Position numbers and translations under genes: made by a program. Positions 4,308-58,550 of a stretch of 64,000 nucleotides of DNA are shown piece by piece. Numbering within the stretch: the stretch's first letter is position 1; each line of letters begins with the position of its first letter. Under the pieces are notes generated by a model that made no database searches, was not told the DNA's origin, and saw only the letters and a program-made list of their open reading frames with translations. The stretch comes from Candidatus Cloacimonadales bacterium (lineage in GTDB: Bacteria; Cloacimonadota; Cloacimonadia; Cloacimonadales; JAFGVF01): NCBI GenBank assembly GCA_963677495.2, contig CAXXOU010000004.1, positions 576,001 through 640,000 of the forward strand, written 5' to 3'.

Positions 4308-4510
4308 TACACAGCGCCTTTTTCAATAACTTAGCTACATTTATTGCCCTTTTTACTCTCTTTTACTGCCCTATCCGGCAACGCACTGTGTCTGCACTGT
4401 GCCCCCACTGTGAAGGCACTGCTAACCCACTGTTTCACCGGGTGCACAGTGCGTGCACAGTGGGAAAACAGTGGGATGACTGCGTTTTGTTGGATAGATT
4501 GCAGGAAGCA
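4308..4510. repeat. Dispersed ~200-bp element with an 11-bp-phased CACTG/CAGTG inverted array (copy 1 of type A)
   Basis: CACTG at 4384, 4395, 4406, 4417, 4428 and CAGTG at 4447, 4458, 4469. Homologous copy at about 41811-42012. Confidence 0.85.
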
Positions 4511-4642
4511 GACAGAGGAATAAGATTAATGAGATTACACTTGACGTATTAACAGCATAAGTAATATTTCTGAAAGGTCTACTTACTGTGGTTAGACTTT
4601 GAATTACGATTATCATTTAGAGAAAAGATATATGGAGGAGAG

Positions 4643-7354
4643 ATGAAGAAGATCCTGACGCTATTTATTTTTATAACTATCTTAACTTCTATGTGGGCTC
4701 ATATGACCTATTATGAGACTACTTTAACTCAACCTGACGGTACTGAGTTTGAAGTTACAATAACCGGTGACCAGTACTTTCGTTCAGTTGCGGATAAGGA
4801 GAATTATACTCTTATTGTTGAACCTAAGACAGGGGAGTGGATGTATGCAATGAAAGGAAGAGATGGTTTAGTACCAAGTCCTTACAAACAGGGTACTATT
4901 GACCCATCTACTATAGGAATTGAACCCGGTTTAGCATACTCAACGAATCAGATAAATAAGAGAGTTGATGAGATGGAAGAGTTCTATTCTGCTAACAGCC
5001 AGTCAAGGACACCAAATACAGGTACTTTCAATAATCTTGTTGTCTTCATACGCTTTTCCGGTGAATCTGAGTTTAATCAGACACTTAGTACATACACAGA
5101 TATGATTAGTGATACAACTCCCGGTGCTAACTCCATGATTAACTTCTTCCAGGAAGCTTCATACAACCAGTTAACTATCCAATCACATTACTATCCACCT
5201 ACTTCAACAAGTTACGTTGTCTCTTATCAGGATACATATCCAAGAAGTTATTTTCAACCGTATAGTGGTTCGAACACTAATGGTTATAACGGAGATGATG
5301 AGCGTGGAGAGCGTGAATTTGCACTCTTACAAAGAGCAGTGAACTATATCGACAGCTATGTCCCTACTTCATTGAACATTGATGCAGATAACGATGGATA
5401 TGTAGATAATATTGTGTTTATTGTTAAAGGTAACACAGACGGTTGGTCAGACCTTTTATGGCCACATAGATGGGTGTTATATGGATTGAATGTATATCTT
5501 AATGGGGATAGAGTTTGGGACTTCAATTTCCAGTTACAAAATCATTTAGTTAGTAGCGGTAACGGCGTTATGTGTCATGAAATGTTCCATTCAGTCGGGG
5601 CTCCTGACCTTTATCACTATAGTCAGGACAATATGGATCCTGTGGGACAATGGGATCTTATGGAGGCTACAACTAATCCGCCACAACACATGTTGATGTA
5701 TATGAAATACAGGTATGGACTTTGGGTTAATAATATACCTGAAATTACAACAAGTGGAACCTACACATTAGCTCCAAGCATGGATAGTGCGAATAACTGC
5801 TATAAGATAGCTTCGACGGACTCAGATGAATACTATGTTTTAGAGTATCGCAAAATGGAAGGAACCTTCGAGAGTAGTTTACCCGGTGAAGGTCTGGTGA
5901 TTTATAGAATCAATACAAATGTTGATGGAGAGGGTAATAGAAATGGTCCTCCGGATGAAGTATACGTTTATCGTCCAAACGGAACTTTAACTGCAAATGG
6001 TAATTCAAGTGCAGGTGTCTTCAACGCATCTTATGGAAGAACCGAGATTAATGATTACACAAATCCAAACGGTTTCCTTTCTGACGGTTCACTAGGTGGT
6101 TTAAACATATCACAAGTAACAACAGCGGGAAATACTATATCATTCTATGCTAATATTGGTGGAACAGGTGCACCAGATGTATCAGTATCACCAACTTCAT
6201 TATCAGCATCTCTACCCCCTGATGCAACTGGTACTCGAACAGTTAGAATTACCAATAATGGTACTGCACCGTTAACTTATAACATTAGCCTACAAGATGG
6301 AACCAGGAACTCAGGTGGTCCAACAACTAGTGGTTACTACTGGCTTGATAGTGCTGAAGCTAATGGACCTGCTTATGTCTGGAATGATATAAGTTCAAGT
6401 GGAACAGAGATTAACTTCACATCAGATGACCAGATCTCTTCAACTATCAACTTAGGTTTTAGTTTCCCATATTACGAAAATAGCTATTCATCTCTAGCAG
6501 TATGTGGTAATGGTTTCCTTAGTTTCTCAGGTACAGATACAGAGTGGAGTAATGAGGATATACCTGATAGTAGTACACCAAATAGTTATATTGCTCCTTT
6601 CTGGGATGATTTAAGTCCACAACAAAGTGGTTCAGTTCATTATTATAGCGATACTGTCAATCAGCGCTTTATTGTACAGTTTACAAATGTACCGCATTAT
6701 TACACTGTAACCGGAACATATACTTTCCAAGTTCACCTGTATGCAAACGGTGAAATCTATTTCTACTATAACAATATGCAAGATACTGTTGATAGTGCAA
6801 CAATTGGAATGGAGAACAGTGATGGCTCTGAAGGTCTTAAGATTGCTTATAATCAAAGCTATGTAACTAACAATAGAGCAGTTCTTATCAGTAATGTTAA
6901 TTTCATACAAGATGATGTTGATTGGGCTGATGCAACTCCAACTGTTGGATCAATAAACCCGAATCAGTATGAGGATGTTACTATTAATATTGATACAGCA
7001 GGACTGAGTGCCGGTAGTAATTATACAGCATCAATTGTGATTAATTCCAATGATAGTGATCAACCATCGATTACTGTACCATTATACCTAGCAGTCACAG
7101 GTTCCTTGGATGCACCTGCAAACGCAACTGCAAGAGTAGTCAATGGACAGATGCAACTGAAATGGTCACCGGTAGCGGGAGCAAGTTCCTATAACGTGTT
7201 TATGCAGAACCCAAGTAATGGTACTTATTACAACAGAAATACTTATGGTACTTTTGGCACAGAAGGTGGTTATGTGACTTGGACAACTATCTTCAACTTA
7301 GGAAATGTCAGTTGGGACAGAGCTTTCTTCTACATTAAAGCAGTAGCTGAATAG
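4643..7354 (+). CDS. Secreted M6 family (immune inhibitor A-like) zinc metalloprotease with Ig-like and nidogen-like domains and a WDRAFF-type C-terminal domain
   Basis: Signal peptide, QPDG propeptide, DxDNDGYVD, WPH, HEMFHSVGAPDLY zinc motif, WDLM Met-turn, IAPFWDDL module. Confidence 0.88.
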   Translation: MKKILTLFIFITILTSMWAHMTYYETTLTQPDGTEFEVTITGDQYFRSVADKENYTLIVEPKTGEWMYAMKGRDGLVPSPYKQGTIDPSTIGIEPGLAYSTNQINKRVDEMEEFYSANSQSRTPNTGTFNNLVVFIRFSGESEFNQTLSTYTDMISDTTPGANSMINFFQEASYNQLTIQSHYYPPTSTSYVVSYQDTYPRSYFQPYSGSNTNGYNGDDERGEREFALLQRAVNYIDSYVPTSLNIDADNDGYVDNIVFIVKGNTDGWSDLLWPHRWVLYGLNVYLNGDRVWDFNFQLQNHLVSSGNGVMCHEMFHSVGAPDLYHYSQDNMDPVGQWDLMEATTNPPQHMLMYMKYRYGLWVNNIPEITTSGTYTLAPSMDSANNCYKIASTDSDEYYVLEYRKMEGTFESSLPGEGLVIYRINTNVDGEGNRNGPPDEVYVYRPNGTLTANGNSSAGVFNASYGRTEINDYTNPNGFLSDGSLGGLNISQVTTAGNTISFYANIGGTGAPDVSVSPTSLSASLPPDATGTRTVRITNNGTAPLTYNISLQDGTRNSGGPTTSGYYWLDSAEANGPAYVWNDISSSGTEINFTSDDQISSTINLGFSFPYYENSYSSLAVCGNGFLSFSGTDTEWSNEDIPDSSTPNSYIAPFWDDLSPQQSGSVHYYSDTVNQRFIVQFTNVPHYYTVTGTYTFQVHLYANGEIYFYYNNMQDTVDSATIGMENSDGSEGLKIAYNQSYVTNNRAVLISNVNFIQDDVDWADATPTVGSINPNQYEDVTINIDTAGLSAGSNYTASIVINSNDSDQPSITVPLYLAVTGSLDAPANATARVVNGQMQLKWSPVAGASSYNVFMQNPSNGTYYNRNTYGTFGTEGGYVTWTTIFNLGNVSWDRAFFYIKAVAE

Positions 7355-7375
7355 AAGATAAATAACAAACGATAT

Positions 7376-7409
7376 ATGCCGGTTTTCAAATGAGAACCGG
7401 CATTTCTTT
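7376..7409 (+). terminator. Intrinsic terminator
   Basis: ATGCCGGTTTTC-AAAT-GAGAACCGGCAT followed by TTCTTT, just after the stop codon. Confidence 0.7.
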
Positions 7410-7475
7410 AATATTTTGTATTACAATTACTAAGTTTGATTAATGTTTGTGCTGGATAAACAGCCCAAAATCAAG

Positions 7476-7750
7476 AAGCCTCCCTTGGGTTACTCTTGTC
7501 TCTCTCTTGTGTTTCTCTTGCAAAGCCAAGAGAGGGTCAAGGCTTGAGCAAGGGAAACACAAGGGTAACCTCACCACTTCTTCCTGACTCCATTCAGACT
7601 CATCTCACTCTTGTCCCACTCTCTTCCCTCAGCAGTAACAACTGCTTACTAATCAATTCTAACTTATTAATAAATTGATACTTTCCTGGTAATTAACCCA
7701 AGGATTACCCAAGTGTTTCCCAAGGGTTACCCAAGTGTCTCACAGGAATT
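7476..7750. repeat. Dispersed ~275-bp element with 11-bp-phased CTTG/CAAG arrays (copy 1 of type B)
   Basis: CTTG at 7484, 7495, 7506, 7517; CAAG at 7527, 7538, 7549, 7560 and at 7699, 7710, 7721, 7732. Colinear copy at about 58273-58550. Confidence 0.8.
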
Positions 7751-7819
7751 GTAAAGCCGAAAATGCATAGGAAATCAGCATTATCTGGATTGAATGAGAG
7801 AAATGCAGTATTCTCCTTT

Positions 7820-8470
7820 AAGGGTAGTACTTGCACCGCAACGAATTGTGGGAGAGAACAAACAAAAGAAGCAACACGAAAACACTAAATAGACTAAAAG
7901 GGAATGCGATACATTAGTAATTTCTAAGGAGTATGTCAGTCTGAAAGAAGAAAGGACTTCTTAGAATGGCACCACTGACTCAAGATTAGCTTACCACTCT
8001 TCGCTGAATGCGATATATTCGTTATTTCTAAGGAGTTTGTCAGAGTGAAGCTTGCGAGCGAAAACGGACTTCTTGGAGTGGCAATATAACCGTTATTTAG
8101 CTATAAACTGATAACTGACAAGATTCTTAAAGAAGTCCTTTTTCACTTCGTAAACTTCGTTCTGAAGAACTCCTTTAAGAGTAGTACTTGAATCGCAACG
8201 AAGTGTGATTTGATAATTCCGGTACTCGTGTCCAATTCGTTCTCGCGTCAAGAGCCTTCGCTCATCAGCTACGGCTTCTCAAGTGCTATCGCTACAACGC
8301 AAGTCCGAGATAGTTTCTTCGAAGTGCACCATTCGGAAGGTCTTCGACCATTCAGAAGGTACAGATGATTATTAGGTTTTAGCTCTGAAGGAGCTACTGT
8401 TTAATAGCCCCATGCGTGAGCGTGGGGTTATGAATCCCCCCAAAAATTATGGAGCCCTGTAGGGGCGAAA
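7820..8470. repeat. Cluster of REP-like palindromic modules (BIME-like mosaic)
   Basis: GTAGTACTTG-x-A-x-CGCAACG occurs twice (about 7824 and 8181). Three related TAAGGAGT..GGACTTCTT hairpins at about 7920, 8025 and inverted at 8125. AGCCCTGTAGGGGCG-type hairpin at about 8452. Modules are shared with 4185-4300, 11250-11430, 32520-32720 and 36470-37245. Confidence 0.7.
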
Positions 8471-8553
8471 GAGAAACAGCAATAAAATAAACCATTTGAC
8501 AAACAAAATATAGCTATTACAAATAACATATCCGGTATCTGTAAGGAGTTCTG

Positions 8554-11136
8554 ATGAAAAAGATTGTATTGTATATTCTATGTTTAATGCCTTTAATATT
8601 ATATTCAACAATTTGGCATGTGAATCAAGATGGAACAGGAGATTTCGTTTCTATCCAAGCTGCTGTGAACAATGCGAATAATGATGATACAATTTTGATT
8701 CATGAGGGTGTCTATTATGAACATGTGCAAACAAGTAACAAACCTTTAACATATGCAAGTTTATTCTATCTGGATAGTGATGAATCGCATATTGGTAATA
8801 CAATTTTGGATGGGCAACACTCGCATCCGCTAATGACACATGATAATGATGTTTTCGGGAGTAACATATCCATTATTGGGTTAACATTTAGGAATGGGAA
8901 TAGAGAGGAAGCTACAGATACGTACTGTGGCGGAGGTGCTATAGGAGTTCAAAGAGCTACGCTTACATTAAACGACTGTAGTATTTACAATAACTATGGG
9001 ATTATTGGAGGTGGAGTATTCACTCGAAACTGCCAAGTCTTTCTTGCTGGTAATTCGATAAGAAATAATAGAGCGTTTACTGCAGGTGGTGGTGTATCTT
9101 TTATCTTTAATGGAGGAGATAGTTATCCAGTCATCTTTGATGGAATTAATTTGAATAGTTTTTACTCAAATCTTTGTTGGTTTGGTACTGATATGAATCT
9201 TTATCAAATCAATGAGGAACACATCAGCGAGATTGTAGCAGATACTTTGAGTGTTGCAGAATACGATAATTACTGCAATGTTGTAAAAATAAGATTAGGA
9301 TCAACACACAGTAACCTTCCAGTTAATGCAAATACTGAAACTCTTCCTCGTGTTGAGTCCAATCTTTATGTTGCTCCTTGGGGTGATGATAATAATGATG
9401 GGTTAACATCTTTTTCTCCTTTCAAGTCGATAATGCAAGCGTGTATGATTATTTCTCCTAGAGTTGATAGTACTCTAATTATATATTTGCTACCTGGAGA
9501 ATATAATAACTCTAATCAAAGATGTCTACCTGTAAACGTAAGAGATAATACTATCATTTCAGGAGAATCTCCAGAAACAACTATCATCAATTGTGACCAG
9601 ATGACTAGTGCTTTTATTAACAGAGTCGGATCATGCAATTTTGAAATTGAGAATCTATCAATAATAAACTGTAGTGTCGGTGCTGATAATTATTATTCTT
9701 CTATTAGTCTTAATACTTCTCAGTATCCATCAAAAGTTAAAATTCGAAACTCCAAATTTTATAATGACTACATGTATCAAAGCACAGAAGCTCAATTTTA
9801 CGTTAATGTTGTCGGTGTCACGTTGGATATATGTGATACAGAATTTGGTAACGAAAACTTGGAAGCCTTGATTCCTCAAAAATCTGTCTTTTGTAATGAA
9901 GACTATTTTTCTCAAGATTTTAACAGTATAAGTAATTGCACATTTTATGGGCAAAATGAGACTATTTGTTTTAGTTCTCAATTCAATTCGAACTTGCTCA
10001 TTTCAAATTGTTTATTTGATTATTCTCAAACTTATAACTACGAGGCAGATCCGTTTCTTGTGAGATATGGAATAGCAATTGAAGGAAAGGTTGATGCTAA
10101 TATTATCAATAATACATTTTACGGAAATCATCCAGCTGGGCAATTAGATGGTCTAATTACGATCATATATTCAAATTATGATACAGGTGGGAATAATGTT
10201 AATGTTAAAAATAATATAATGATTGATAATTTTACTCCTACCAGTAATAACTCAGTGTATGTAGATAATCACTATGGTCCTTGGGCAACAAATGTTAATG
10301 TAGGTAACAATTTAGTCTTAGGAGGGGAAAGCACAGTTGGTTATCCCAATTGGGAAGAAGTGACTTTTAACTACGAAGATACGAACATTGATACAATACC
10401 TCATTTCACAGGATATGGAGTAAACAGATTTATGCTGGATGATGATTCTCCTTGTATAGATGAAGGTACACTGAATCTACCTGATGGATTCGAACAACCT
10501 GAAACTGATTTGGTAGGTAATCCTCGTGTGCATGGTGAGAGTATAGATATGGGTTGTTATGAATGGCAAGGGAATGTAGCTGATTTCACAATGCAGGCAA
10601 TGGGGAATGTGTTCCCTATTGATGTTGTGTTTACTCCACACTACAACTTCCCAATTGATACAATTGCCTGGGACCTTGATCTTGATGGTGTGATTGATAG
10701 CTATGAGATGAATCCAGTCTGGTCATATCCTGATTTCTCTGGACATAATGTTGGCATGTACATAAATGATGGGGAAGCTATTGAGATTAAGTATGACTGC
10801 ATACAGCCTACTACCCCGATATTAGAAGAAACGAACGATACACCTGAAGCTAATGAGTTATTAGCTTGTTATCCTAATCCCGTGCGAATCTCAACTGGTA
10901 ATGTTATACTGAAGTACAATGTCAAAGATGTTGGAAACGCAGAGTTGAAGGTATACAATATCAAAGGTCAAATGGTGAAATCCATTAAGGTTAAAAGTCA
11001 ACGTAAAGGGCGTAATACTATCTTCTGGTATCTTACTGATAATCGGGGTGTGCATGTCTCTTCGGGAGTGTATCTCTACAATCTTGAACAGAATGGTGAA
11101 AGTATAGGTAAAGGTCAGATAACGGTGGTGAAATAG
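8554..11136 (+). CDS. Secreted parallel beta-helix protein (DUF1565/choice-of-anchor Q-like, PKD-like) with a FlgD-Ig/T9SS-type C-terminal domain
   Basis: Signal peptide, DGTGDFVSIQAAVN start motif, YVAPWGDDNNDG, SPCIDEG...DLVGNPR...IDMGCYE, C-terminal YPNP...YNIKGQMV...SSGVYLY. Confidence 0.8.
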   Translation: MKKIVLYILCLMPLILYSTIWHVNQDGTGDFVSIQAAVNNANNDDTILIHEGVYYEHVQTSNKPLTYASLFYLDSDESHIGNTILDGQHSHPLMTHDNDVFGSNISIIGLTFRNGNREEATDTYCGGGAIGVQRATLTLNDCSIYNNYGIIGGGVFTRNCQVFLAGNSIRNNRAFTAGGGVSFIFNGGDSYPVIFDGINLNSFYSNLCWFGTDMNLYQINEEHISEIVADTLSVAEYDNYCNVVKIRLGSTHSNLPVNANTETLPRVESNLYVAPWGDDNNDGLTSFSPFKSIMQACMIISPRVDSTLIIYLLPGEYNNSNQRCLPVNVRDNTIISGESPETTIINCDQMTSAFINRVGSCNFEIENLSIINCSVGADNYYSSISLNTSQYPSKVKIRNSKFYNDYMYQSTEAQFYVNVVGVTLDICDTEFGNENLEALIPQKSVFCNEDYFSQDFNSISNCTFYGQNETICFSSQFNSNLLISNCLFDYSQTYNYEADPFLVRYGIAIEGKVDANIINNTFYGNHPAGQLDGLITIIYSNYDTGGNNVNVKNNIMIDNFTPTSNNSVYVDNHYGPWATNVNVGNNLVLGGESTVGYPNWEEVTFNYEDTNIDTIPHFTGYGVNRFMLDDDSPCIDEGTLNLPDGFEQPETDLVGNPRVHGESIDMGCYEWQGNVADFTMQAMGNVFPIDVVFTPHYNFPIDTIAWDLDLDGVIDSYEMNPVWSYPDFSGHNVGMYINDGEAIEIKYDCIQPTTPILEETNDTPEANELLACYPNPVRISTGNVILKYNVKDVGNAELKVYNIKGQMVKSIKVKSQRKGRNTIFWYLTDNRGVHVSSGVYLYNLEQNGESIGKGQITVVK

Positions 11137-11140
11137 ATAA

Positions 11141-11180
11141 TAGCCTATAGCCTAAAGCCTAAAGCCTAAAGCCTATAGCT
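11141..11180. repeat. Heptamer tandem repeat (AGCCTAW)n
   Basis: tagcctatagcctaaagcctaaagcctaaagcctatagct, about 5 units directly after the stop codon. Confidence 0.8.
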
Positions 11181-11249
11181 GGAGCGGTCGTCTGATGAAA
11201 GTATACTACCTTGAGAATAGTCCTAAGACCTTCTCAATGCTCAGGAAGA

Positions 11250-11430
11250 TGTGAATCGCATCGAAGTGCCTGAGAAGCCGTAGCTGATAGGCGAAGGGTC
11301 TTGATTCGCTAATTCCGGTATTCGAAGCCCAATTCGTTCTCACCCCACACTTTGTTGCGGTGCAAGTCCGAGATAGTTTCTTCGAAGTAGACTATTCCCG
11401 AAGGTCTAAATATCATTGGAAAGTAAAGAC
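11250..11430. repeat. REP-like mosaic, direct-orientation homologue of 8190-8365
   Basis: A 27-bp identical stretch GCAAGTCCGAGATAGTTTCTTCGAAGT at 8299-8325 and 11362-11388, with flanking similarity. Confidence 0.8.
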
Positions 11431-11433
11431 ATT

Positions 11434-11464
11434 AAAAAAGCCTACCGGCAATGTCGATAGGCTT
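11434..11464 (-). terminator. Terminator of tRNA-Leu
   Basis: Stem AAGCCTACCGGCA/TGTCGATAGGCTT with an A-run on the + strand, just downstream of the tRNA CCA end. Confidence 0.65.
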
Positions 11465-11470
11465 AAGCTT

Positions 11471-11560
11471 TGGTGCTGAAGAAGGGACTTGAACCCCCAC
11501 GTCCTAATTTCGGACACTAGAACCTGAATCTAGCGTGTCTACCAATTCCACCACTCCAGC
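11471..11560 (-). tRNA. tRNA-Leu (anticodon CAG)
   Basis: The reverse complement reads GCTGGAGTGGTGGAATTGGTAGACACGCTAGATTCAGGTTCTAGTG...GGGGGTTCAAGTCCCTTCTTCAGCACCA: D-loop, anticodon stem CTAGA/TCTAG with loop TTCAGGT, long variable arm, T-loop GTTCAAGT and encoded CCA. Confidence 0.97.
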
Positions 11561-11753
11561 ATGAGTGTATTACAGATATTTTTGAACCCTTACTATGTCA
11601 ATAGAAATCTTAACAGTAAAATAGCTACTAATCACTTTGATTATAGGTCAGAGAGTATTGATAGTGAACTAATTTCAATAATATATCAGATTTTCCTTGC
11701 AATATAAAAAATCATAGTGAAAATACGTATTACCAAATCTATAAATCTGTGAG

Positions 11754-19715: not shown

Positions 19716-19901
19716 ATCCTTACCTTAAATCCATTATCTCTAATAAATACAGATTAAATGTTTATTTATGATAATGCTTGAGTTAATATAATGTTTTCTA
19801 CTCAAACTCAATTAACTCCTCCCAAATGCTGAATGCAGGATGCTGAATTATATAATTCTTGACTTGGATAGATTAAATATTGTCTTAGATATGGAGGTTA
19901 T

Positions 19902-22445: not shown

Positions 22446-22454
22446 AATTTTATC

Positions 22455-32270: not shown

Positions 32271-32426
32271 TTCCCTTCCAGTCCCGTGCCTACGACAAGT
32301 TTTCCATAAATCTTTAAGTTATCCACATGATGTGGATAAATCGAGCCTTTCAACGAGAGGGTCACGAGAGGGTCACCTGTGGGAGACCTATGAAACACCT
32401 TTCTTAGTCACGGGACCGGAAGGGAT
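32271..32426. repeat. Inverted-repeat-bounded element with an 11-bp-phased AC[GC] array (type D)
   Basis: IR TTCCCTTCCAGTCCCGTG (32271-32288) and CACGGGACCGGAAGGGAT (32409-32426). ACGAG/ACCT at 32353, 32364, 32375, 32386, 32397. Confidence 0.65.
32319..32339. promoter_or_regulatory. Pair of perfect DnaA boxes in inverted orientation
   Basis: TTATCCACA-TGA-TGTGGATAA. Confidence 0.6.
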
Positions 32427-41702: not shown

Positions 41703-41729
41703 TTAATAAACATATCCTATTATATACAG

Positions 41730-41764: not shown

Positions 41765-41810
41765 ATTCTCTATTTTATCAACAGTTCTTTACAAAGACAA
41801 TAAATTTATC

Positions 41811-42012
41811 TACACAGCGTCTTTTGCAATAACTTAGCTACATCTCATGTCCTTTTTACTCTCTTTAACTGCTCTATCCATCAACGCACTGTGTTAGCAC
41901 TGTGCACGCACTGTGAAGGCACTGTCAACCCACTGTTTCACTGGGTGCACAGTGCGTGCACAGTGGGAAAACAGTGCGTTAATAGGGTTTTGGTTGATAG
42001 ATTGATGCAAGA
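41811..42012. repeat. Copy 2 of the type A 11-bp-phased element
   Basis: CACTG at 41887, 41898, 41909, 41920, 41931 and CAGTG at 41950, 41961, 41972. Colinear with 4308-4510. Confidence 0.85.
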
Positions 42013-43744: not shown

Positions 43745-43747
43745 TAT

Positions 43748-45487: not shown

Positions 45488-45496
45488 GAGGTATTT

Positions 45497-46192: not shown

Positions 46193-46194
46193 AG

Positions 46195-46431
46195 ATGCCA
46201 AGAAGAAAACCTTGGAAAGTTCTTTTGTGGTTTACACCCTTTTTGGTGTTGATTGCGTTGCAACCTGTAATCATACGAATACCTAAAAGAACGTTTCAAC
46301 TTGTAATCTTACTTGAATTAATACTCTTGACAATTGTTATTGTCTGTGTGGGTATCATCTACAAATATTTTAAAAAGAAATTTAGAGAGATAAATGAACT
46401 ATCCGGAGAAATTGAGGTTTTAGATGAATAA
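46195..46431 (+). CDS. Small membrane protein, hypothetical
   Basis: Two hydrophobic segments, closely packed with its neighbours. Confidence 0.55.
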   Translation: MPRRKPWKVLLWFTPFLVLIALQPVIIRIPKRTFQLVILLELILLTIVIVCVGIIYKYFKKKFREINELSGEIEVLDE

Positions 46432-48185: not shown

Positions 48186-48237
48186 GTTTCTATTGACATG
48201 CACAATAATACAAGTTTGGTAGAAGAAAGGTACAATT

Positions 48238-48969: not shown

Positions 48970-49559
48970 TGGATTTTCTCATAGTATTTATCAAAGTTTT
49001 AATTGTTCTTGCTGTCAATATAGGGTTCGGACTCTTTCTCGCAGAAATACTGCGTTTTTTCTTAATTAATCAATGGAAGCGTAAAATTGTTATTGGAAAC
49101 TTCAATCTTACTCCGGGTTTCATTATTCAGAAACGACAGTGGGTCTTAGATAAAGCTTATGACCTTCTCAGTGACTATCTCGACCAAGCTGACGGCAAAT
49201 CTGAAGGATACTTAGCTAAATGGGAACAAAAGGTCTATGATTTCATATATGAAAATATGGAGTTTGTAGAAAAAGCTAAACTTCTACCTGAATCGTTCAG
49301 AGTAAAGATTAGACACATGTCCGGTAGCTTTGCCAGAATGCTGGCAGCAAAACTTCTCCGTGAGTTTGTCCCATTTGTTATCGATAAATACAAAATCAAA
49401 AACAAGATTGATCTGGTCGCCTCTAAGATAGAAGTTGAAACTATAGTGGAATTCTATAATAAGTATGTACATGAATACCTAACCAAGTTCAACTTATTCT
49501 TCTTTGGATTAATCGGTATTATAAACGTTATTACATTCCTACTCTTGTTATTATTCTAA
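48969..49559 (+). CDS. Hypothetical membrane protein (DUF445-like topology)
   Basis: TM at both termini, TPG.I motif, TGATG overlap with the upstream gene. Confidence 0.6.
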   Translation: MDFLIVFIKVLIVLAVNIGFGLFLAEILRFFLINQWKRKIVIGNFNLTPGFIIQKRQWVLDKAYDLLSDYLDQADGKSEGYLAKWEQKVYDFIYENMEFVEKAKLLPESFRVKIRHMSGSFARMLAAKLLREFVPFVIDKYKIKNKIDLVASKIEVETIVEFYNKYVHEYLTKFNLFFFGLIGIINVITFLLLLLF

Positions 49560-49575
49560 TATTGCTCCCTTTTAA

Positions 49576-49685
49576 AACACGGGGATCTCTCGGGACTCTC
49601 ACGGGACTTACACGGGAGTCACGCGGGACTTTGCCCGAACAATCTCCGTCAAATTACCACTCAATACCCCAATAATTCCCGAGAG
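49576..49685. repeat. 11-bp-phased CGGG/CCCG inverted array (type C)
   Basis: CGGG at 49580, 49591, 49602, 49613, 49624, then CCCG/TCCG/ACCA/CCCC/CCCG at 49634, 49645, 49656, 49667, 49678. Confidence 0.75.
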
Positions 49686-49736
49686 TTAGAGGAGAATACT
49701 TAAGCTAAGAGATAGCAGGATTAAACATAAGCAATT

Positions 49737-49766
49737 AAAAAAGACTGCTTACTCAGAAGCAGTCTT
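49737..49766 (-). terminator. Terminator between convergent genes
   Basis: AAAAAAGACTGCTT-ACTCAG-AAGCAGTCTT. Confidence 0.7.
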
Positions 49767-49786
49767 ATGAAATAGCTGTTTAGTTG

Positions 49787-52258: not shown

Positions 52259-52464
52259 AATAATTCCTCCTGAATTGTTTTAGAATTTTGAATAAATTGA
52301 TTAATTTTCCCATATATGTTCAGAGGAAACATGGTGTTCTTAATAGATCCGTCTTGCAAAGTTAGTGTGAGGTAGCAATAAACCTTACCTGCATAGATTT
52401 TACCAACTGTTCTTGACGCATCAATCAGTTTTGTCATTTCCTCTAAGTTATACATTTTTTTCAT
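52255..52464 (-). CDS. Small hypothetical protein or leader ORF
   Basis: 69 aa, overlaps the start of the downstream gene by 4 nt, no recognisable motif. Confidence 0.35.
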   Translation of the reverse strand: MKKMYNLEEMTKLIDASRTVGKIYAGKVYCYLTLTLQDGSIKNTMFPLNIYGKINQFIQNSKTIQEELL

Positions 52465-52475
52465 AACCTATATTA

Positions 52476-52493
52476 TTGCATTGAAGATTCCAA
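52476..52493 (-). promoter_or_regulatory. Putative sigma-54 (-24/-12) promoter
   Basis: The minus strand reads TTGG-AATCTTCAAT-GCAA (GG-N10-GC), divergent from a bEBP gene. Confidence 0.6.
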
Positions 52494-52577
52494 AATTGGA
52501 TTGATATGATAAGTAGCTGTTTCGCAATATATTAGCAGGAGTATGAAAGGATTTTACGTGTAGATTAACACCCCCTG

Positions 52578-52618
52578 TTTCCCGAAATCGGGATATGATT
52601 AATCACGATTTCGGGAAA
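52578..52618. promoter_or_regulatory. Putative enhancer (UAS) for the adjacent sigma-54 activator
   Basis: Perfect 13-bp IR TTTCCCGAAATCG...CGATTTCGGGAAA, made of two palindromic sites (TCCCGAAATCGGGA and TCACGATTTCGGGA), about 90-130 bp upstream of the -24 element. Confidence 0.65.
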
Positions 52619-52721
52619 GAAGTATGTATATCTGTGAAAGACCAACAGAAAGTTTCACAATAACAGAAGCAAAAACTTGACAGCATTACTATAAATAGCT
52701 GTATCAATTTAGGAGATTAGA

Positions 52722-54956
52722 ATGGGCTTAAAAACAGATTTATCAGATAAGATTATCGATTGTTATCAAGAGATATTAAACAATGAAAAGATAACCGATT
52801 ATGAAGAGCTTTGTAGAATAACTCTGAAAGCTTATCGAAGGCTTTTGGACGCAGGTTATACTCCATCAGAAAACTCAACGAATGCATTTCTAAAAGTTCT
52901 AGAGCACTGTTCAGAAGATAATTCAATGGGATTAACAGAATTAGATGCAAAGGTTATTTTGAAAGCAGGAAGTTTAAGTAATCGTTATGATTTAATTACA
53001 ACAATATTTACAAACCTTCTCCATGTTTCTATCTCTAACAATTTTTCGATATGCCCTATATTAGTAAACTACATAGATTCTTCGATTACAGAACAATGTC
53101 CATATCTTATTGTAGCAAAAGCTTACTATCAGATAATTCAATACTATTCAGGTAAGAAAGAATTTGAGAAGTGCTCTCCCTATTTTGATAAGTTGGAGTC
53201 CATTGTAACTGTTGTGGACGACCCCAAAATAATTTATTACTACTACTTGAGTTATGGCTGTTTTCATTATACACAAGGTGAGTTGTTTAAAGCCATCCAT
53301 TTCTTGAATAGGGTTGTTAGTTACAAGGATAATCCTCCTGATTCTTCACAATATTATAGAGCACATTTTCTACTAGCCTTATCTTATGCTTCAAACTCAA
53401 TTATGGATAAAGCAATTGAACATATTGATGTTCTTTTAAATGAGAATAGTGGATTTAACAAATTGAAGCTATCAACTTACAAAGCAAGGATGTTTAGTCA
53501 GAGAAAAGATTTTGTGTCTGCTGAACGTATTTTATCTGATTTGTTAGCTAAGAACAAAGACAATGAACAAGTATCTAAACTGGTAAATGCTGACCTTTTT
53601 ATGATATCTTTAATGCAAGATAATTCCGAAAAGATTCAGAAGTATTATGAACTAATTGATGATAAAAGCTTATCTAATATTCCCAAACTTTTTCGAGATT
53701 ACTATTACCTGCATACAGGAGAGCTAGACCAAATAAAGTTGGAGAGCATATATAGGGACTATGAGAAGGCCTCTAGAGATAAGAACCCTTATTCAAAACA
53801 GTACTTAAACTTTCTTGTTGAATATTATATTAGAAAGCAGGATTACCAAAATGCATATGATCAGTTTCAAGAACTTCTCAAGAAGAACCGGGAGATTGAG
53901 ACACAGTACAAAATACTGGAACTGGAATCCTATTTGAATCTCTTAGAGAAGTACGAAGAATTCAAGAGTGATGAGATGTCTAAACGGGATTTGGTTTCAT
54001 CAATAGAAAAGAGTAAGTTGGAAAAGAGTATAGTTGGAAAATCACTTGAACTTAGAAAAGTATTAGGTGATAGTAAGATTGTTGCTAATGCTCATTTCTC
54101 GAATGTCCTGTTAACAGGAGAGACAGGAACCGGTAAAGAGTTGATTGCGAAGTTGATTCATTACAACAGTAATAGAAGGAACAAAAATTTCTGTGAGATA
54201 AATCTTTCTGCTCTCTCTCCAACTTTAATTGAAAGTGAACTGTTTGGGTACAAGAAAGGAGCATTTACCGGTGCTCTTCAAGATAAAAAGGGTTTATTGG
54301 AAATTGTACATAATGGAACTTTATTCTTAGATGAAATCTCAGAGATACCCACAGAGATTCAAACTAAGCTTCTCAAAGTTATTGAAGAAAAGAGCTTTTA
54401 TCCTATTGGGGCAACTAAGCCTATGCAATCTAATTTCAGATTAATTTGTGCTACAAACAAAGATTTAAAGAGTTTAGCTGAACAAGATAAATTTAGAATT
54501 GATTTATATTATCGATTATCAAGTTATGAAATTGTAATACCTGCTCTGCGAAAACGTAAGAGTGATATCCCTCTTCTAGTTAAGTACTTCATCAAAATAT
54601 TTTCCGATGAACTGAAGAGACCTGAGTTCTCTCTAACTGATAATCAAATGGACTTACTTTTACAATATGATTTCCCTGGAAATGTGAGAGAACTAAAAAA
54701 TCTAGCACAAAGAATCGTAATTTGCTATCATAACGGACAAGCAGTTGACAATGTTATCAACAGTTTTATCACTTCTAGAGAAATGAATACAGAATTAAGC
54801 ACTTTTAATCTTGAAAAGATTGAGAAGGATACAATAATCAGAGCTTTGAAGAGGTGTAAAGGAGTTCAATCACAGGCAGCTAAGCTACTAGGAATTAGTA
54901 ATAATGCAATCGCTAGAAAGATAAGTAAGCATGGATTAAGAGACATCTGTAAATAA
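52722..54956 (+). CDS. Sigma-54-dependent enhancer-binding protein with a TPR-like N-terminus and Fis-type HTH
   Basis: GETGTGKE, ESELFGYKKGAFTGA, LFLDEI, FRIDLYYRL, FPGNVREL, QAAKLLGIS. Confidence 0.92.
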   Translation: MGLKTDLSDKIIDCYQEILNNEKITDYEELCRITLKAYRRLLDAGYTPSENSTNAFLKVLEHCSEDNSMGLTELDAKVILKAGSLSNRYDLITTIFTNLLHVSISNNFSICPILVNYIDSSITEQCPYLIVAKAYYQIIQYYSGKKEFEKCSPYFDKLESIVTVVDDPKIIYYYYLSYGCFHYTQGELFKAIHFLNRVVSYKDNPPDSSQYYRAHFLLALSYASNSIMDKAIEHIDVLLNENSGFNKLKLSTYKARMFSQRKDFVSAERILSDLLAKNKDNEQVSKLVNADLFMISLMQDNSEKIQKYYELIDDKSLSNIPKLFRDYYYLHTGELDQIKLESIYRDYEKASRDKNPYSKQYLNFLVEYYIRKQDYQNAYDQFQELLKKNREIETQYKILELESYLNLLEKYEEFKSDEMSKRDLVSSIEKSKLEKSIVGKSLELRKVLGDSKIVANAHFSNVLLTGETGTGKELIAKLIHYNSNRRNKNFCEINLSALSPTLIESELFGYKKGAFTGALQDKKGLLEIVHNGTLFLDEISEIPTEIQTKLLKVIEEKSFYPIGATKPMQSNFRLICATNKDLKSLAEQDKFRIDLYYRLSSYEIVIPALRKRKSDIPLLVKYFIKIFSDELKRPEFSLTDNQMDLLLQYDFPGNVRELKNLAQRIVICYHNGQAVDNVINSFITSREMNTELSTFNLEKIEKDTIIRALKRCKGVQSQAAKLLGISNNAIARKISKHGLRDICK

Positions 54957-55266
54957 GGAAATAAATCACAATATCGTCATAATTAACATAAACTTAAGAA
55001 TCTATACTATTATAGTATGAAAAGCTGAATATAGCATAGCTTTACACTATTCATTATTGCAATTAACTTAAATCTAAATTTCATTTAGCGATATGTAAAA
55101 GCTTAAATCGTTATTTTTGTCACAATTTTATTTATCGGCATAAGTGTATGTGTAGTAGACGATAGTAGAATTTAGCTTAGTAAATATAAATGCAAGAGCC
55201 GATTTATGTTGACAATCATAAGTGCAATAGTAAAAGGTGCTCAAAATTAAAATCTTGGAGGATTTA

Positions 55267-56607
55267 ATGACTATTAATGATTTTATGGCACAAGTCGAAG
55301 TGAAGAATCCGGCTCAGCCCGAATTCATTCAGGCAGTAAGAGAAGTTGTGGAGTCAGTTTGGGAGTATTACCATGCACACCCACGCTACGTAAAAGCTAA
55401 AGTATTAGACAGAATCGTAGAGCCTGAAAGAGTCATTATGTTCCGCGTTCCTTGGATGGATGACAAAGGTGAAGTTCAAGTGAACCGTGGATACCGTGTT
55501 GAATTCAACAGTGCTATTGGACCTTACAAAGGTGGATTACGTTTCCATCCTTCTGTAACTTTATCAATCCTTAAGTTCCTCGGTTTCGAGCAGATCTTCA
55601 AAAACAGTCTTACAACACTCCCAATGGGTGGCGGTAAGGGTGGATCTGACTTTGACGCTAAAGGCAAATCAGATGCTGAAATCATGCGTTTCTGCCAATC
55701 ATTCATGATGGAACTTTTCCGTCATATCGGACCTAACACAGACGTTCCTGCTGGTGACATCGGTGTTGGTGGACGTGAGATTGGTTACATGTTCGGTATG
55801 TATAAGAAACTTCGTAATGAGTTCACTGGTGTTCTTACAGGTAAAGGCCTTAACTGGGGTGGTTCACTTATCAGACCTGAAGCTACAGGTTTTGGTGCTA
55901 CTTACTTTGCTAAAGAGATGCTTAAAACAAAAGATATGACTTTTGAAGGCAAGAAAGTTGCTCTTTCAGGTTTCGGTAACGTTGCTTGGGGCGCTGCTCA
56001 GAAAGTTACTATGCTTGGTGGAACAGTTATCACTATTTCAGGTCCTGACGGATACGTTCTCGATGAAGAAGGTATTAACACACCTGAAAAATTCGATTAC
56101 CTTCTTGAACTTCGTGCATCAAACAACGACCGCGTAAGCGATTACGTTGAAGCATTCCCTAATGCTAAATTCTTCCCTGGCAAACGCCCTTGGGAAGTTA
56201 AAGTTGATGTTGCTATGCCATGTGCTACTCAGAACGAACTTAATGAAGATGATGCTAAAGCACTCGTTGCAAATGGTGTTATTGCTATCTCTGAAGGTGC
56301 TAACATGCCTTGTACTCCTGGTGCAGTTCATGTATTCCTTGAGAACAAAATTCTCTTTGCTCCTGGTAAAGCTGCTAACGCCGGTGGTGTTGCAACTTCA
56401 GGTCTTGAGATGTCACAGAACAGCTTACGTTTCAACTGGACTGCTGAAGAAGTTGATGAAAAACTTCACAGAATCATGTGCGACATTCACGATGCATGTG
56501 TTAAGTTCGGTAAAGACGAAGATGGTTTCGTTGATTACGTTAAAGGTGCAAACATTGCAGGTTTCGTAAAAGTTGCTGATGCTATGCTTGACCAGGGTGT
56601 TGTATAA
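55267..56607 (+). CDS. gdhA: NAD(P)-specific glutamate dehydrogenase
   Basis: GPYKGGLRFHP, FEQIFKN, PMGGGKGGSDF (catalytic Lys intact), PAGDIGVG, RPEATG, EGANMP. Strongly biased codon usage and GGAGG RBS before ATG 55267. Confidence 0.97.
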   Translation: MTINDFMAQVEVKNPAQPEFIQAVREVVESVWEYYHAHPRYVKAKVLDRIVEPERVIMFRVPWMDDKGEVQVNRGYRVEFNSAIGPYKGGLRFHPSVTLSILKFLGFEQIFKNSLTTLPMGGGKGGSDFDAKGKSDAEIMRFCQSFMMELFRHIGPNTDVPAGDIGVGGREIGYMFGMYKKLRNEFTGVLTGKGLNWGGSLIRPEATGFGATYFAKEMLKTKDMTFEGKKVALSGFGNVAWGAAQKVTMLGGTVITISGPDGYVLDEEGINTPEKFDYLLELRASNNDRVSDYVEAFPNAKFFPGKRPWEVKVDVAMPCATQNELNEDDAKALVANGVIAISEGANMPCTPGAVHVFLENKILFAPGKAANAGGVATSGLEMSQNSLRFNWTAEEVDEKLHRIMCDIHDACVKFGKDEDGFVDYVKGANIAGFVKVADAMLDQGVV

Positions 56608-56632
56608 ACTACCCCTTTAACTAGTATATATT

Positions 56633-56668
56633 AAAAGGCTCCCAATCGGGAGCCTTTCTTTGTTTTTT
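56633..56668 (+). terminator. Intrinsic terminator
   Basis: AAAAGGCTCCC-AATC-GGGAGCCTTTCTTTGTTTTTT. Confidence 0.85.
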
Positions 56669-56794
56669 TACTAAAAGCATCAATTATGGAGGAAGATTGG
56701 GTTGCAATTTATAGTTTCCTATCTATAATATATACAAAGCATTACAAGTATTGCTGATTGTAAATAAGTTTTGTAACTATAGAAGGAGTGCATT

Positions 56795-58150
56795 ATGAAG
56801 AAAGTATCAATCTTGATATCGATGATGTTTGTTTGGATTATATTGAGTGGGCAAACTCTTAACTATCCGGAAAGTATAGCTTATGACTATAATACCGGTT
56901 GGCGCTATATAAGTAATAATGGTAATGGATCAATAATCAGGGATCAAAATGATAATCAATATACATATTTTTCTCAAGGGTTGGGAGGTGTAAGAGGGTT
57001 ACTGGTTCAAGAGCAGAAGCTCTTTGCTGCTACTAATTTGGGATTAGCAGTTTTTGATTTAGTGACTGACCAGCTTGCATCAACTATACCTATTCCAAAC
57101 TCTATTTTTTTAAATGATGTCGTTGCTGATAATTCAGGGAACATCTACATATCGGATAGCCAAGCTTTCAAGATCTTCAAATATTCAATCATTTCAGAAG
57201 TTGTAACTACTTTTGTTGATACTGGAATACAAAATCCTAATGGAATGGTTTTTGATAGTTCGAATGATAGATTGCTTATCGTTTCAGCAAGAGCAAATGC
57301 ACCAATTCAAGCTATAGATCTATCTGATGGTTCAATAAGCACTGTTCTAACTACAAATGTCGGGAGTTTAGATGGGTTAGGTGTTGATAGAAATGGTGCA
57401 ATATACTTTTCTAGTTGGGCAACCAGCTCAATATACCGACTGACAACCCTTAATAGCACTCCGCTACAGATATGGACAGGTATTTCGGGTCCTGCAGATT
57501 TCTATATTTACTATACCGAAACTTCAACTGATAGTTCTGTAAGCATAGAAAGTCAAATATGGATACCTAGTATGCTGAACCAAAGCGTTATAACATATGA
57601 TCTACCAAACACAGTAAATCACTTTAGTCCAAACATAGACAGTCAAAATCAGGATTTATATGGTTGGCGATCTAATTATGAGTATCTACTTCAAGGATAT
57701 AATATTTATCAAAGTAATAATAATAATTTTGGACAAGCAGTATTGGTAACTTCAAGTATTATCCAACCGCAAAACACAGAGAATGCAGTCTATTTTCTTA
57801 ACAATTACTACAATGGTGATGGTTTTATTTGGATAGAATCAATAGAAGTAGATGGAACTCAGCATCTATATGGTCCATATAATGTTAGTGGAACAAACAC
57901 GTTAGAAACTCCTCAAGTAACTGATATTACTATTGATAACGAAGATATAGAAATACAATGGGAACCTGTTACAGGCGCTACATCCTATAAAGTATATGTT
58001 CAAGTGGATGCAGATGGAGATTTTACTGATAATAGTGACTTAGGAATGTTTAGTAGTACAGAATCGATGGTTACTTGGTCAACATCTGGCAATCCTGATT
58101 TTGTGATTTGGGATAGAGCATTCTTTTTCGTAAAAGCTGTAGCTGAATAA
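56795..58150 (+). CDS. Secreted SMP-30/gluconolactonase-like beta-propeller protein with a WDRAFF-type C-terminal domain
   Basis: Signal peptide, PESIAYD, FLNDV..D..GNIYISDS, PNGM, LDGL, GPAD blade motifs, C-terminus WDRAFFFVKAVAE. Confidence 0.8.
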   Translation: MKKVSILISMMFVWIILSGQTLNYPESIAYDYNTGWRYISNNGNGSIIRDQNDNQYTYFSQGLGGVRGLLVQEQKLFAATNLGLAVFDLVTDQLASTIPIPNSIFLNDVVADNSGNIYISDSQAFKIFKYSIISEVVTTFVDTGIQNPNGMVFDSSNDRLLIVSARANAPIQAIDLSDGSISTVLTTNVGSLDGLGVDRNGAIYFSSWATSSIYRLTTLNSTPLQIWTGISGPADFYIYYTETSTDSSVSIESQIWIPSMLNQSVITYDLPNTVNHFSPNIDSQNQDLYGWRSNYEYLLQGYNIYQSNNNNFGQAVLVTSSIIQPQNTENAVYFLNNYYNGDGFIWIESIEVDGTQHLYGPYNVSGTNTLETPQVTDITIDNEDIEIQWEPVTGATSYKVYVQVDADGDFTDNSDLGMFSSTESMVTWSTSGNPDFVIWDRAFFFVKAVAE

Positions 58151-58272
58151 GCATCTATTTCTGAAGTAGACTTATCGTTAGGTGAGTTATATTTAGAGTT
58201 GTAATATATTGAACTTAGTTTACACTTTGTCAACTAGTTCAATTCTTTTCCACGATTTTCTCCATAATTAAT

Positions 58273-58550
58273 AAACCTCCCCTGGGTTTCCCTTACCTCT
58301 CTCTTGAGTCTCTCTTGCAAAGGCTAGAGAAAGGCAACGGAGTGGCTAGGGAGAGGCAGGCGAGATTTCACCATTTATACCAGACTTTTGTCAGGCTAAT
58401 TCTACTCACGTCTATCATTCTTCACTCAGCAGTAATTAGTGATTCCAAGCTAGTTTTAACTTGGTGATATGTTGGCCAGATCTTGGCAATTAGGCCAGGA
58501 ATAGGCCAAGGGTTTACCAAGTGTTTACCAAGTGTTGCTCAAGAATTACT
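58273..58550. repeat. Copy 2 of the type B 11-bp-phased element
   Basis: CCTG/CTTA/CTTG/CTTG at 58281, 58292, 58303, 58314; CTAG/CAAC/CTAG/CAGG at 58324, 58335, 58346, 58357; CAGG/CAAG at 58496, 58507, 58518, 58529. Same offsets as 7484-7732. Confidence 0.8.

Follow-up and report, generated by a model that had tools for sequence, protein, structure and literature searches.

Six intergenic arrays of short words repeated every 11 bp lie within a 64,000-nucleotide stretch of contig CAXXOU010000004.1 from a Candidatus Cloacimonadales bacterium (the window), and they raise the question of what kind of element they are and which protein, if any, reads them. An earlier note, made from the letters alone, had interpreted them as a platform on which a protein wraps DNA or loads as a filament. 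All six arrays are present, and we followed them through the whole genome (G000), the complete genome of a sister species (G001), and other Cloacimonadota. New here are a frame common to eight families of elements, their over-even spacing along the chromosome, and a linked family of orphan proteins; the earlier note missed these because they are visible only outside the window. A search of the openly accessible literature found no description of the elements or of the proteins, and the accessible part of a paper on this bacterial group (PMC8542988) makes no mention of DNA repeats.

Phased elements in the window

The type A element at 4308..4497 (+), one of 68 copies, has a profile match spanning 4286-4497 and contains a 110-bp frame of 5+5 slots at 4379-4488 (centre 4433/4434) besides a conserved 5′ extension of ~70 bp. 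As for the other frames in the window, this one was placed by eye. A second copy lies at 41798..42000 (+), with its frame at 41882-41991. The type C element at 49548..49705 (+), one of 24 copies, has its frame at 49576-49685 (centre 49630/49631), and comprises five strong slots and five degenerate inverted ones.

What the earlier note had described as a single type B element turned out, as judged by eye, to consist of a 4+4 fold-back array and, about 170 bp further on, a B-type frame as a second module. At the first such locus, the fold-back array (type N, a cluster of seven; extents again by eye) occupies 7484..7567 (+), and the type B element, one of 39 copies, occupies 7580..7751 (+), with its frame at 7639-7748 (centre 7693/7694). 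At the second, a degenerate type N array at 58281..58365 (+) precedes a type B element at 58374..58564 (+), whose frame is at 58436-58545 (centre 58490/58491). The remaining array, formerly called type D, belongs to a cluster of ~30 elements that we name type M; it lies at 32294..32403 (+), a frame drawn by its likeness to type E. Its phased words lie in the right half, and the left half carries a head-to-head pair of 9-mers (32319-32327 and 32331-32339) that match the DnaA-box consensus.

Eight families share a 110-bp frame of ten 11-bp slots

G000 carries ~300 short non-coding elements of ~15 types; we counted 302 copies, 29 of them type F. The period of 11 is real: 4-mers repeated four times formed 181 clusters genome-wide at lag 11 compared with 0-33 at every other lag from 5 to 35. 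The 14 family core words, repeated three times, gave 3-255 raw matches at lag 11. At the control lags (9, 10, 12, 13, 14, 16, and 17), 10 of the 14 gave at most two matches at any lag, and four noisier 4-mer words gave up to 43. The variable bases that the earlier note had seen between cores are only half of the picture: in type A, spacers do differ from slot to slot within one copy, but they are 75-98% conserved between copies. The length variants of type A differ mostly by whole slots.

Most of the types tested are ten 11-bp slots mirrored about a centre. The frame was computed for types other than M, N, K, L, and O, and eight families share one: a dyad-symmetric 110 bp of 5+5 slots bounded by imperfect inverted arms of 12-19 bp, with a total span of 132-136 bp. 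An arm profile trained only on types C and J recovered an inner distance of 108 bp in 10/22 type F, 7/7 type G, and 3/5 type H copies, and did not find it in A, B, D, E, L, or M; with the families' own arms, the frame fitted 63/66 copies of A, 20/37 of B, 12/18 of C, and 10/36 of E. Type D, in the present naming and not that of the earlier note, has eight slots and a single arm spacing in all 38 full copies. Several types have one strong arm only, and types A, B, F, and J also have conserved sequence outside the arms. Slot positions 4-8 are type-specific, and a G at position 9 is common to seven families. The words continue through the centre of the element, and the phase of GC content relative to that centre varies by family (right-arm peaks at 0.3-9.0 of 11 in nine families). 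Perfect DnaA-box 9-mers are concentrated here, with 92 of 154 in or beside elements, and pairs of them are limited to types E, G, H, and M.

Mirror positions in the arms of type D do not covary (1151 mirror pairs compared with 1152 after permutation); 26 of 439 arm changes are compensated, with no G-T bias. At the Rfam gathering threshold, the only match in the window was one tRNA and none fell on the arrays. With one arm spacing, no covariation in type D, and whole-slot variants in type A, the elements look like the protein-loading DNA platform that had been proposed and unlike an RNA.

Elements are evenly spaced and turn over rapidly

The 264 loci are spaced with a coefficient of variation (CV) of 0.59, compared with 0.86 ± 0.05 for random intergenic draws, and none of 2000 draws was as even; gaps shorter than 5 kb between elements numbered 23, with 67 expected. 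Because only ~17% of neighbors are expected to be of the same type from frequency, this deficit acts across types. Same-type neighbors are themselves rarer than expected (30 versus 43, p = 0.007). Samples of G001 gave CVs of 0.53 and 0.30 with a minimum of 10 kb, values that stand without a null. Element density is ~1 per 13 kb and flat from origin to terminus. The types are nevertheless zoned, A towards the terminus and E towards the origin (p = 7e-9, with contig order assumed), and a type's zone does not significantly track the position of its gene (rho 0.24, p = 0.5). In the window, five of the six arrays follow the 3′ end of a gene, as the earlier note had observed; genome-wide, the preference is for divergent gaps: among gaps of at least 400 bp, elements occupy 85/129 divergent, 29/62 convergent, and 108/224 tandem ones (p = 0.003). 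Both orientations relative to genes are found.

Sites and types turn over fast between G000 and G001. Of 409 conserved gene pairs, 11 hold an element in just one of the two genomes, and in a further 2 both genomes have one, of differing types; in the aligned one-genome-only cases, the inserts also bring roughly 60-200 bp of unique flank. In G001, element-bearing gaps are synteny breaks in 35/40 cases compared with 55/96 for other large gaps (p = 6e-4). By blastn, type A is present in 3/3 same-genus genomes and 0/27 others. Type E occurs in G000, G002, and G003, and the complete G001 has no match to it. Other families with other words give 127 matches in G013 and 80 in G026. No target-site duplication was found in types A, B, C, D, E, F, G, H, or J, though old insertions might have lost theirs. 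In contigs from four runs of one sample, with ~100-fold depth over type A, unique flanks were confirmed and no sign of excision was seen, the joints being explained by other copies.

Array types are linked to paralogs of an orphan protein family

The array types are statistically linked to paralogs of a family of ~150-amino-acid proteins. Across Cloacimonadota, a lag-11 array lies within 1 kb upstream of 46 of 94 homologs and downstream of 2, and arrays at control lags 10, 12, or 13 lie upstream of 7 of the same 94. Outside G000, the counts are 32/72 upstream and 1 downstream. The link follows the tree, with an upstream array in 45/70 members of one clade (the linked clade) and 1/24 of the other (the array-free clade); these clades come from a midpoint-rooted FastTree whose support values were not inspected, and kin are not independent. 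In G000, the elements upstream of family genes number 16 and span 12 types (p = 0.004; 10/13 in a strict version, p = 0.037), and for most types a single copy lies immediately upstream of a family member. For the types in the window, whose own 64 kb holds no linked-protein gene, these copies are at C4:1,447,755 (A), C4:946,147 and C4:1,498,355 (B), C4:23,735 (C), C2:33,661 and C3:24,324 (M), and C3:297,206 and C4:1,070,940 (N). Taken over all its paralogs, G000 alone shows no excess: 14/22 genes have an upstream array, compared with 59% of all genes with an upstream gap of at least 500 bp (p = 0.42). Against the gap-matched background, the linked clade by itself reaches 13/15 (p = 0.023) and the array-free clade 0/7 (p = 0.002).

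The same word is kept by orthologs for types A and B (G000/G001), one pair in G001/G003, and two pairs in G013/G025, which could reflect plain co-inheritance of the upstream region. G001 is without type E arrays and also without a close ortholog of the E-linked genes, and G013 and G026 each have one array just upstream of a family homolog. Genomes with no homolog, or with array-free-clade homologs only, had no arrays in 120 kb (G024), 120 kb (G004), 80 kb (G006), and 40 kb (G053); G037, with 19 homologs, had three in 60 kb. Among 27 held-out homologs, 1/5 linked-clade and 1/22 array-free-clade genes exceeded the score threshold; in 5/5 held-out linked-clade genes, lag 11 outscored the other lags from 9 to 13. 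Types and genes do not pair one to one: no gene adjoins type F, C arrays occur in G001, where the C-linked gene has no close ortholog, and several words are found in the clade linked to type D. One clade (that of G027) has few arrays (3/11).

The family has 22 paralogs in G000 and was found in 96 of the 151 Cloacimonadota genomes searched and not in 55, at 0-25 paralogs per genome. Nearly invariant positions in the family hold K, G, R, Y, or L, and none of them is a histidine. By isoelectric point, 14 of the 15 array-linked paralogs in G000 are basic (pI 7.7-9.7) and all seven of the array-free clade are acidic, an example being the paralog at C1:774,894. The genes beside the 22 paralogs are mutually unrelated, as judged from N-terminal snippets, and include no conserved motor gene. 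Searches of Pfam, NCBIfam, and PDB sequences returned only chance matches to single members, and PHROGs gave a weak lead, phrog_575 (Cox-like excisionase and repressor), for 2/22 members (E = 7e-4). A structure predicted with a pLDDT of 94.9 had no match at E ≤ 0.001 in Foldseek against PDB and BFVD, which does not establish a new fold, and none at Z ≥ 5 in a VIA fold search. Some 10 ribbon-helix-helix chains appeared among the 50 VIA matches listed, at Z 2.7-3.9, with rmsd 1.8-3.7 over 43-72 residues and residues 1-38 barely covered. Single queries of IMG/VR, a phage collection, and a metagenome scan found no relative, and no longer fused forms were found, which is weak evidence.

Discussion

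We put at about even the chance that these lattices are read type by type by the paralogs and thereby serve as evenly spaced chromosome-organising sites. The ~150-amino-acid proteins would be DNA-binding, each paralog presumably reading its own word, and the family may have a chromosome-organising role. The arrays would then be dispersed, fixed-size DNA lattices on which the type-specific paralog loads one unit per 11-bp slot along both arms, bending or wrapping the DNA, and the lattices so deformed would form the evenly spaced organising sites. The copy beside each gene would be the operator of that gene, and the even spacing would be the outcome of selection for an element every 13 kb or so. 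A more ambitious version, which we hold tentatively and think somewhat improbable as a whole, is a multi-code chromosome-architecture system in Cloacimonadota, in which new-fold paralogs, each with its own word, share a common 110-bp ten-slot lattice, and the lattices replicate and turn over, filling the genome to ~1 per 13 kb regardless of type and zoned from origin to terminus.

The same observations could, with lower probability, describe a selfish system, in which the arrays would be mobile elements that depend on the paralog for mobilisation, targeting, or immunity. New paralogs would then arise as escapes from existing specificities, and target immunity, not a host function, would produce the even spacing. 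Fast turnover between G000 and G001, the 0-25 paralogs per genome, the imperfect inverted arms, the scarcity of same-type neighbors, and the excess of synteny breaks all favor such a system, as does the pattern of one gene with a population of copies known from REPIN-RAYT in the accessible part of bioRxiv 2021.07.10.451892. It fits poorly, however, with the absence of target-site duplication in nine families, with a protein that has no recognisable transposase fold or family and no nearly invariant histidine, with repulsion that crosses types bearing different words, with flat total density while types are zoned, and with zones that do not follow gene position. Hitch-hiking seems improbable to us: genes and arrays would both gather in large variable gaps, the arrays would be read by some ordinary protein of the host, for instance DnaA or a nucleoid protein, and one of the many Y1 transposases would spread them. 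In G000 the overall link does not exceed the gap-matched background, DnaA boxes do concentrate at elements, and array-rich genomes have 14, 13, and 15 Y1 transposases compared with 4 and 2 in array-poor ones. Against it stand the one-sided upstream position of the arrays, the split between clades in arrays and in charge, and the over-representation of rare types beside the genes; DnaA-box pairs are restricted to four types, Y1 genes are not enriched beside elements (4/14 within 1.5 kb, background 33%), and a single host protein would not account for as many as fifteen exact words.

Strong gyrase or topoisomerase sites, with bendability coded in two periodic arms, were the example given by the earlier note, and we now regard them as very improbable. 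As described in the accessible part of PMC6379681, the E. coli gyrase motif is symmetric, ~130 bp long, and 10.75-bp-periodic, which the dyad symmetry, the span, and the period of 11 resemble. A density of one element per 13 kb would also be compatible with supercoil domains. The gyrase motif is a degenerate GC wave of fixed phase around a separate 36-bp core, whereas here the words are exact, type-specific, and continue across the centre, the GC phase is not common to families, and the elements prefer divergent and not convergent gaps. We give the least credence, and very little, to structured RNAs, which would form long hairpins, an A-form helix of 11 bp per turn placing all words on the same face. 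Of seven stretches from the window, five do fold better than shuffles (z = -2.3 to -3.7 or stronger; z ~ -6 for type A), but the lack of arm covariation in type D, the types with one strong arm, the absence of Rfam matches, and the occurrence of both orientations relative to genes all speak against it; covariation was weak and confined to the outer arms of types C and E (p = 0.04 and 0.017, uncorrected).

These results turn a class of unexplained repeats into a testable protein-DNA system, with a named candidate protein for about a dozen words in one geometry and, in the acidic array-free clade, a built-in negative control. If binding holds, comparison of the paralogs would yield the recognition code of a fold for which no relative has been solved. 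That spacing is even regardless of type is relevant to whether bacteria encode ~10-kb domain boundaries in sequence or whether self-replicating repeats can space themselves by immunity. If the multi-code reading is true, the system would be the bacterial counterpart of boundary or positioning elements that spread themselves, and it would offer a naturally occurring set of DNA-wrapping proteins with different sequence specificities.

Comparison with known systems

The likeness to a segregation-protein array suggested by the earlier note is close. In the accessible part of PMC2241845, parC of plasmid R1 consists of ten 11-bp repeats in two sets of five beside a small-protein gene; ParR, bound at about one dimer to each repeat, bends the DNA and acts as a repressor of its own promoter. 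The repeats of parC are direct and separated by a 39-bp gap with the promoter, whereas the two sets described here are inverted and abutting, in ~300 chromosomal copies of ~15 types. Moreover, the 22 genes have no conserved motor gene beside them, and the linked protein matches ribbon-helix-helix proteins, the fold of ParR, only at Z up to 3.9. Type II partition centromeres are single sites that lie in the operon of a filament-forming NTPase, whereas the elements number 302 and the genes beside the paralogs are unrelated to each other.

REPIN-RAYT systems, in the accessible parts of PMC3116915 and the preprint above, likewise pair a low-copy gene with short, inverted intergenic elements whose population persists, with several such groups per genome. 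They differ in that the linked protein is not a Y1/HUH transposase by Pfam, NCBIfam, or fold match, and the elements are phased, fixed-size, over-dispersed lattices and not paired inverted palindromic REPs with conserved, covarying hairpins. IS607-family ends, per the accessible part of PMC6188088, carry four 9-bp motifs in helical phase, from which a filament of serine TnpA assembles cooperatively, and they too combine phased motifs with no target duplication. The arrays, unlike these ends, are dyad-symmetric and do not flank transposase genes, and the serine recombinase PF00239 was found in 0/5 genomes (G000, G001, G004, G013, and G024), with 12/14 controls positive. The elements share with MITEs orthologous sites empty in one genome (the 11 gene pairs above). 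Their imperfect inverted arms bound the frame, with conserved sequence beyond them in types A, B, F, and J, and the target-site duplication typical of a DDE-mobilised MITE was not found in nine families, though old insertions might have lost it. DUF6266 (PF19781) of Bacteroidota has a weak structural likeness to the linked protein (ESM Atlas TM 0.51 by query over 109 residues); its model matched nothing in G000, G013, G014, or G021, nor any of 147 family members.

The sites matS, SBS, and NBS, read by MatP, SlmA, and Noc, respectively, mark chromosome zones through short single words, each for one protein. Like them, the elements form many intergenic sites zoned from origin to terminus. SMC roadblock boundaries, as presented in the accessible part of PMC11840125, are likewise among the closest known systems. 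From matS, SBS, and NBS the elements stand apart as 110-bp lattices of many interchangeable types with rapid turnover.

A genome-wide family of 11-bp-phased arrays

The six intergenic arrays that an earlier note located in the window are all present where it placed them. Its expectation of a genome-wide excess at a repeat spacing (lag) of 11 bp also held: in the source genome (G000; 3.41 Mb in four contigs, C1 to C4, the window being C4:576,001–640,000, with protein homologs largely from Candidatus Cloacimonadota among ESM Atlas taxa), fourfold repeats of a 4-mer made up 181 clusters at lag 11, and no other lag from 5 to 35 exceeded 33. Profiles of 12 families, applied with a cut-off of at least 28 bits, gave 302 non-overlapping matches in G000, namely 68 of type A, 65 of type E and weak E-like sequences, 40 of D, 39 of B, 29 of F, 24 of C, 9 of J, 8 each of G and L, 6 of H, and 3 each of I and K. 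Residual calls were grouped as M (30, the weak E-like matches), N (7), and O (7). These letters are ours: the array that the note called type D is real but was recast from a single type of its own as our type M, and its type B array is equally real but not one unit, since it consists of N followed by B.

A shared, mirrored frame

Imperfect inverted arms were found in each of eight families, with an arm-to-arm span of 132–136 bp in A, C, F, G, H, and J. An arm profile built from C and J alone recovered a 108-bp inner distance in 10/22 F, 7/7 G, and 3/5 H copies and gave no such distance in A, B, D, E, L, or M; using their own arms, 63/66 A, 20/37 B, 12/18 C, and 10/36 E copies fit the same frame. 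The centred families consist of five plus five 11-bp slots around a dyad (110 bp). In C, F, J, G, H, B, and E, the type-specific word occupies slot positions 4–8 and right-arm position 9 is mostly G (GC fraction 0.64–1.0). Types A and D are offset by one base relative to the other families, D having four plus four slots.

Phase was kept. The central gap was identical in 38/38 full D copies, none of which had any of five other gap lengths, and type A spans were identical in 56/58 and 59/60 measured copies, the variants being shorter by 1, 11, and 12 bp; such unit-length changes could also be explained by slippage alone. The D arms showed no covariation, a result that speaks against conservation as an RNA hairpin.

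The left half of E, G, and H carries 9-mers resembling the DnaA box; they are paired head-to-head, as they also are in M (window 32319–32339). Perfect DnaA-box 9-mers lie inside or adjoining elements in 92 of 154 cases in G000.

Spacing and turnover on the chromosome

Merging elements at most 1.5 kb apart yielded 264 loci in G000 with a mean distance of 12.8 kb, 35 of which hold more than one element. The coefficient of variation (CV) of the gaps was 0.59 compared to 0.86 ± 0.05 in random draws from 612 intergenic gaps (0/2000 draws as even), and 23 gaps were below 5 kb where 67 were expected. Type A alone was also over-dispersed (CV 0.61 versus 0.98); types B to F taken singly were not significantly so when judged by CV. 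Two 400-kb samples of the sister-species genome (G001) gave CVs of 0.53 and 0.30 and a minimum of 10 kb, with incomplete detection and no null. The earlier note saw the elements mostly downstream of genes or between convergent genes; genome-wide, divergent gaps are favoured instead.

With a contig order assumed in part (a 256-bp end is common to C2 and C4), dnaA at C1:869 kb, and the terminus set from GC skew, overall density was flat, type A lay terminus-ward, and type E lay origin-ward (p = 7e-9). G001 bears this out for type A, with nine matches among 16 dnaA-distant loci versus two among 15 near ones. The origin bias of E together with its DnaA-box pairs makes DnaA titration possible.

Element sites are not conserved between the two genomes: across 409 conserved gene pairs (~1 Mb of G001), an element was present in one genome only at 11 and in both at 2, with unlike types. 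Synteny breaks occurred at 35/40 element-bearing gaps versus 55/96 others, an excess that might come from ordinary recombination between copies. We found no target-site duplication at the elements. Gene order between G000 and G001 (L140–L179) is reshuffled in blocks of tens of kb, with origin distance roughly preserved.

Several other features neighbour the arrays. An IS21-like element (C1:470.7 kb, C3:196.6 kb, C4:988.7 kb, and C4:1,304.9 kb), of which 17 ends were found, lies inside lattice elements in 4/17 cases and within ~140 bp of them in three more, even though lattice elements make up just ~46 kb of the 3.4-Mb genome. Various short, palindromic REP-like modules adjoin arrays (window 4160–4300, 7900–8450, and many type A flanks), and G000 has 14 matches to Y1 transposases. 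A 903-aa ORF (window 4643–7354) is located between the first A element and the first B element; its start resembles a signal peptide, and Pfam gave no match to it.

A small orphan protein family beside the arrays

Clustering of G000 ORFs revealed 22 full-length paralogs of 143–153 aa, plus fragments. By profile, an element lies no more than 1.2 kb upstream of 14/22, a proportion not significant when set against genes whose upstream gap is equally large. A further paralog has an N array, and none of the 22 has a downstream element. The family occurs in 96/151 genomes of the phylum, at 1–25 copies apiece; one paralog has a relative, 54% identical, in a record titled Ca. Zophobacter franzmannii. 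The family matched nothing in Pfam, NCBIfam, or PDB sequences. The AlphaFold model (pLDDT 94.9, pTM 0.80) predicts a short beta region at residues 14–34 followed by five helices; Foldseek returned no match to it, and a two-helix resemblance to ribbon-helix-helix proteins is weak (Z ≤ 3.9).

Among 94 homologs from 20 genomes, each with at least 500 bp upstream, a lag-11 array was found upstream of 46 and downstream of 2, compared to 7 at neighbouring lags. Upstream arrays accompany 1/24 members of one branch (the free clade, which includes every homolog sampled from genus g2) versus 45/70 of the remainder (the linked clade); in G000, free-clade paralogs are acidic and linked paralogs basic. Several ortholog pairs retain the same word across genomes, and G013 and G026, which represent two further families, carry dispersed words of their own with one copy adjoining a homolog. 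The stronger arguments for the link are its one-sidedness, the clade split, ortholog conservation, and the diversity of types beside genes, the last resting on our own type assignments; the held-out homolog set was small and chiefly free clade. Type F has no adjoining family gene, and G001 has C arrays, yet lacks a close ortholog of the C-linked gene.

Broken or truncated family genes occur at C4:469,531–469,766, C4:662,125, and C4:1,070,913; one sits on a type O array and may be the lost partner of that type. An AT-rich promoter-like word is common upstream of many family genes in both clades (G000, G001, G013, G014, and G026), with 8/50 strict G000 matches so placed. Repeats at lag 7 form a class of their own (33 clusters in G000, 45 calls in 200 kb of G013; L021, L027; G013 L084–L093); they occur upstream of several family genes, free clade included, and near a probable four-helix-bundle gene. 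Array counts for G013, G014, G025, G026, and G027 were taken from stretches centred on homologs and are biased upwards; the stretches of G024, G053, and G037 and most of those of G004 were picked without regard to the gene. Arrays are in excess at lag 8 (6 calls) and lag 9 (17 calls) in 160 kb of G014 (L094–L101), and at lag 8 (5) in 60 kb of G037 (L208–L210). G021 and G027 (L040, L120–L129) encode longer homologs, open frames of ~185–240 aa that number up to 25 in a genome, and their 11-bp arrays are few; these homologs possibly form a bridge to DUF6266-like Bacteroidota proteins.

Discussion

The elements are real, are ordinary in no tested respect, and belong to no family whose defining features could be checked; the literature searched contained no description of the shared frame, the even spacing, or the candidate proteins. 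As the most economical reading, we propose that each paralog would recognise its own word and then load along all ten slots in a cooperative manner; the dyad and the fixed length would reflect a single protein–DNA geometry passed down to all types. Cognate binding of word by paralog is probable. Given such binding, a host function in chromosome structure is the reading we favour, at roughly even odds overall. The fast turnover and patchy distribution favour a selfish element with target immunity, which we consider rather unlikely: repulsion acts across types, total element density is flat, and the protein bears no catalytic signature, and for these reasons the host role is preferred. The two are not exclusive.

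The earlier note had suggested, among other examples, a strong gyrase or topoisomerase site. The size agrees with gyrase sites (PMC6379681), and the phase and the exact words do not. The loading proposed for the paralogs would resemble that of ParR, which loads cooperatively on parC with its ten 11-bp repeats (PMC2241845), or that of TnpA on IS1535 ends (PMC6188088).
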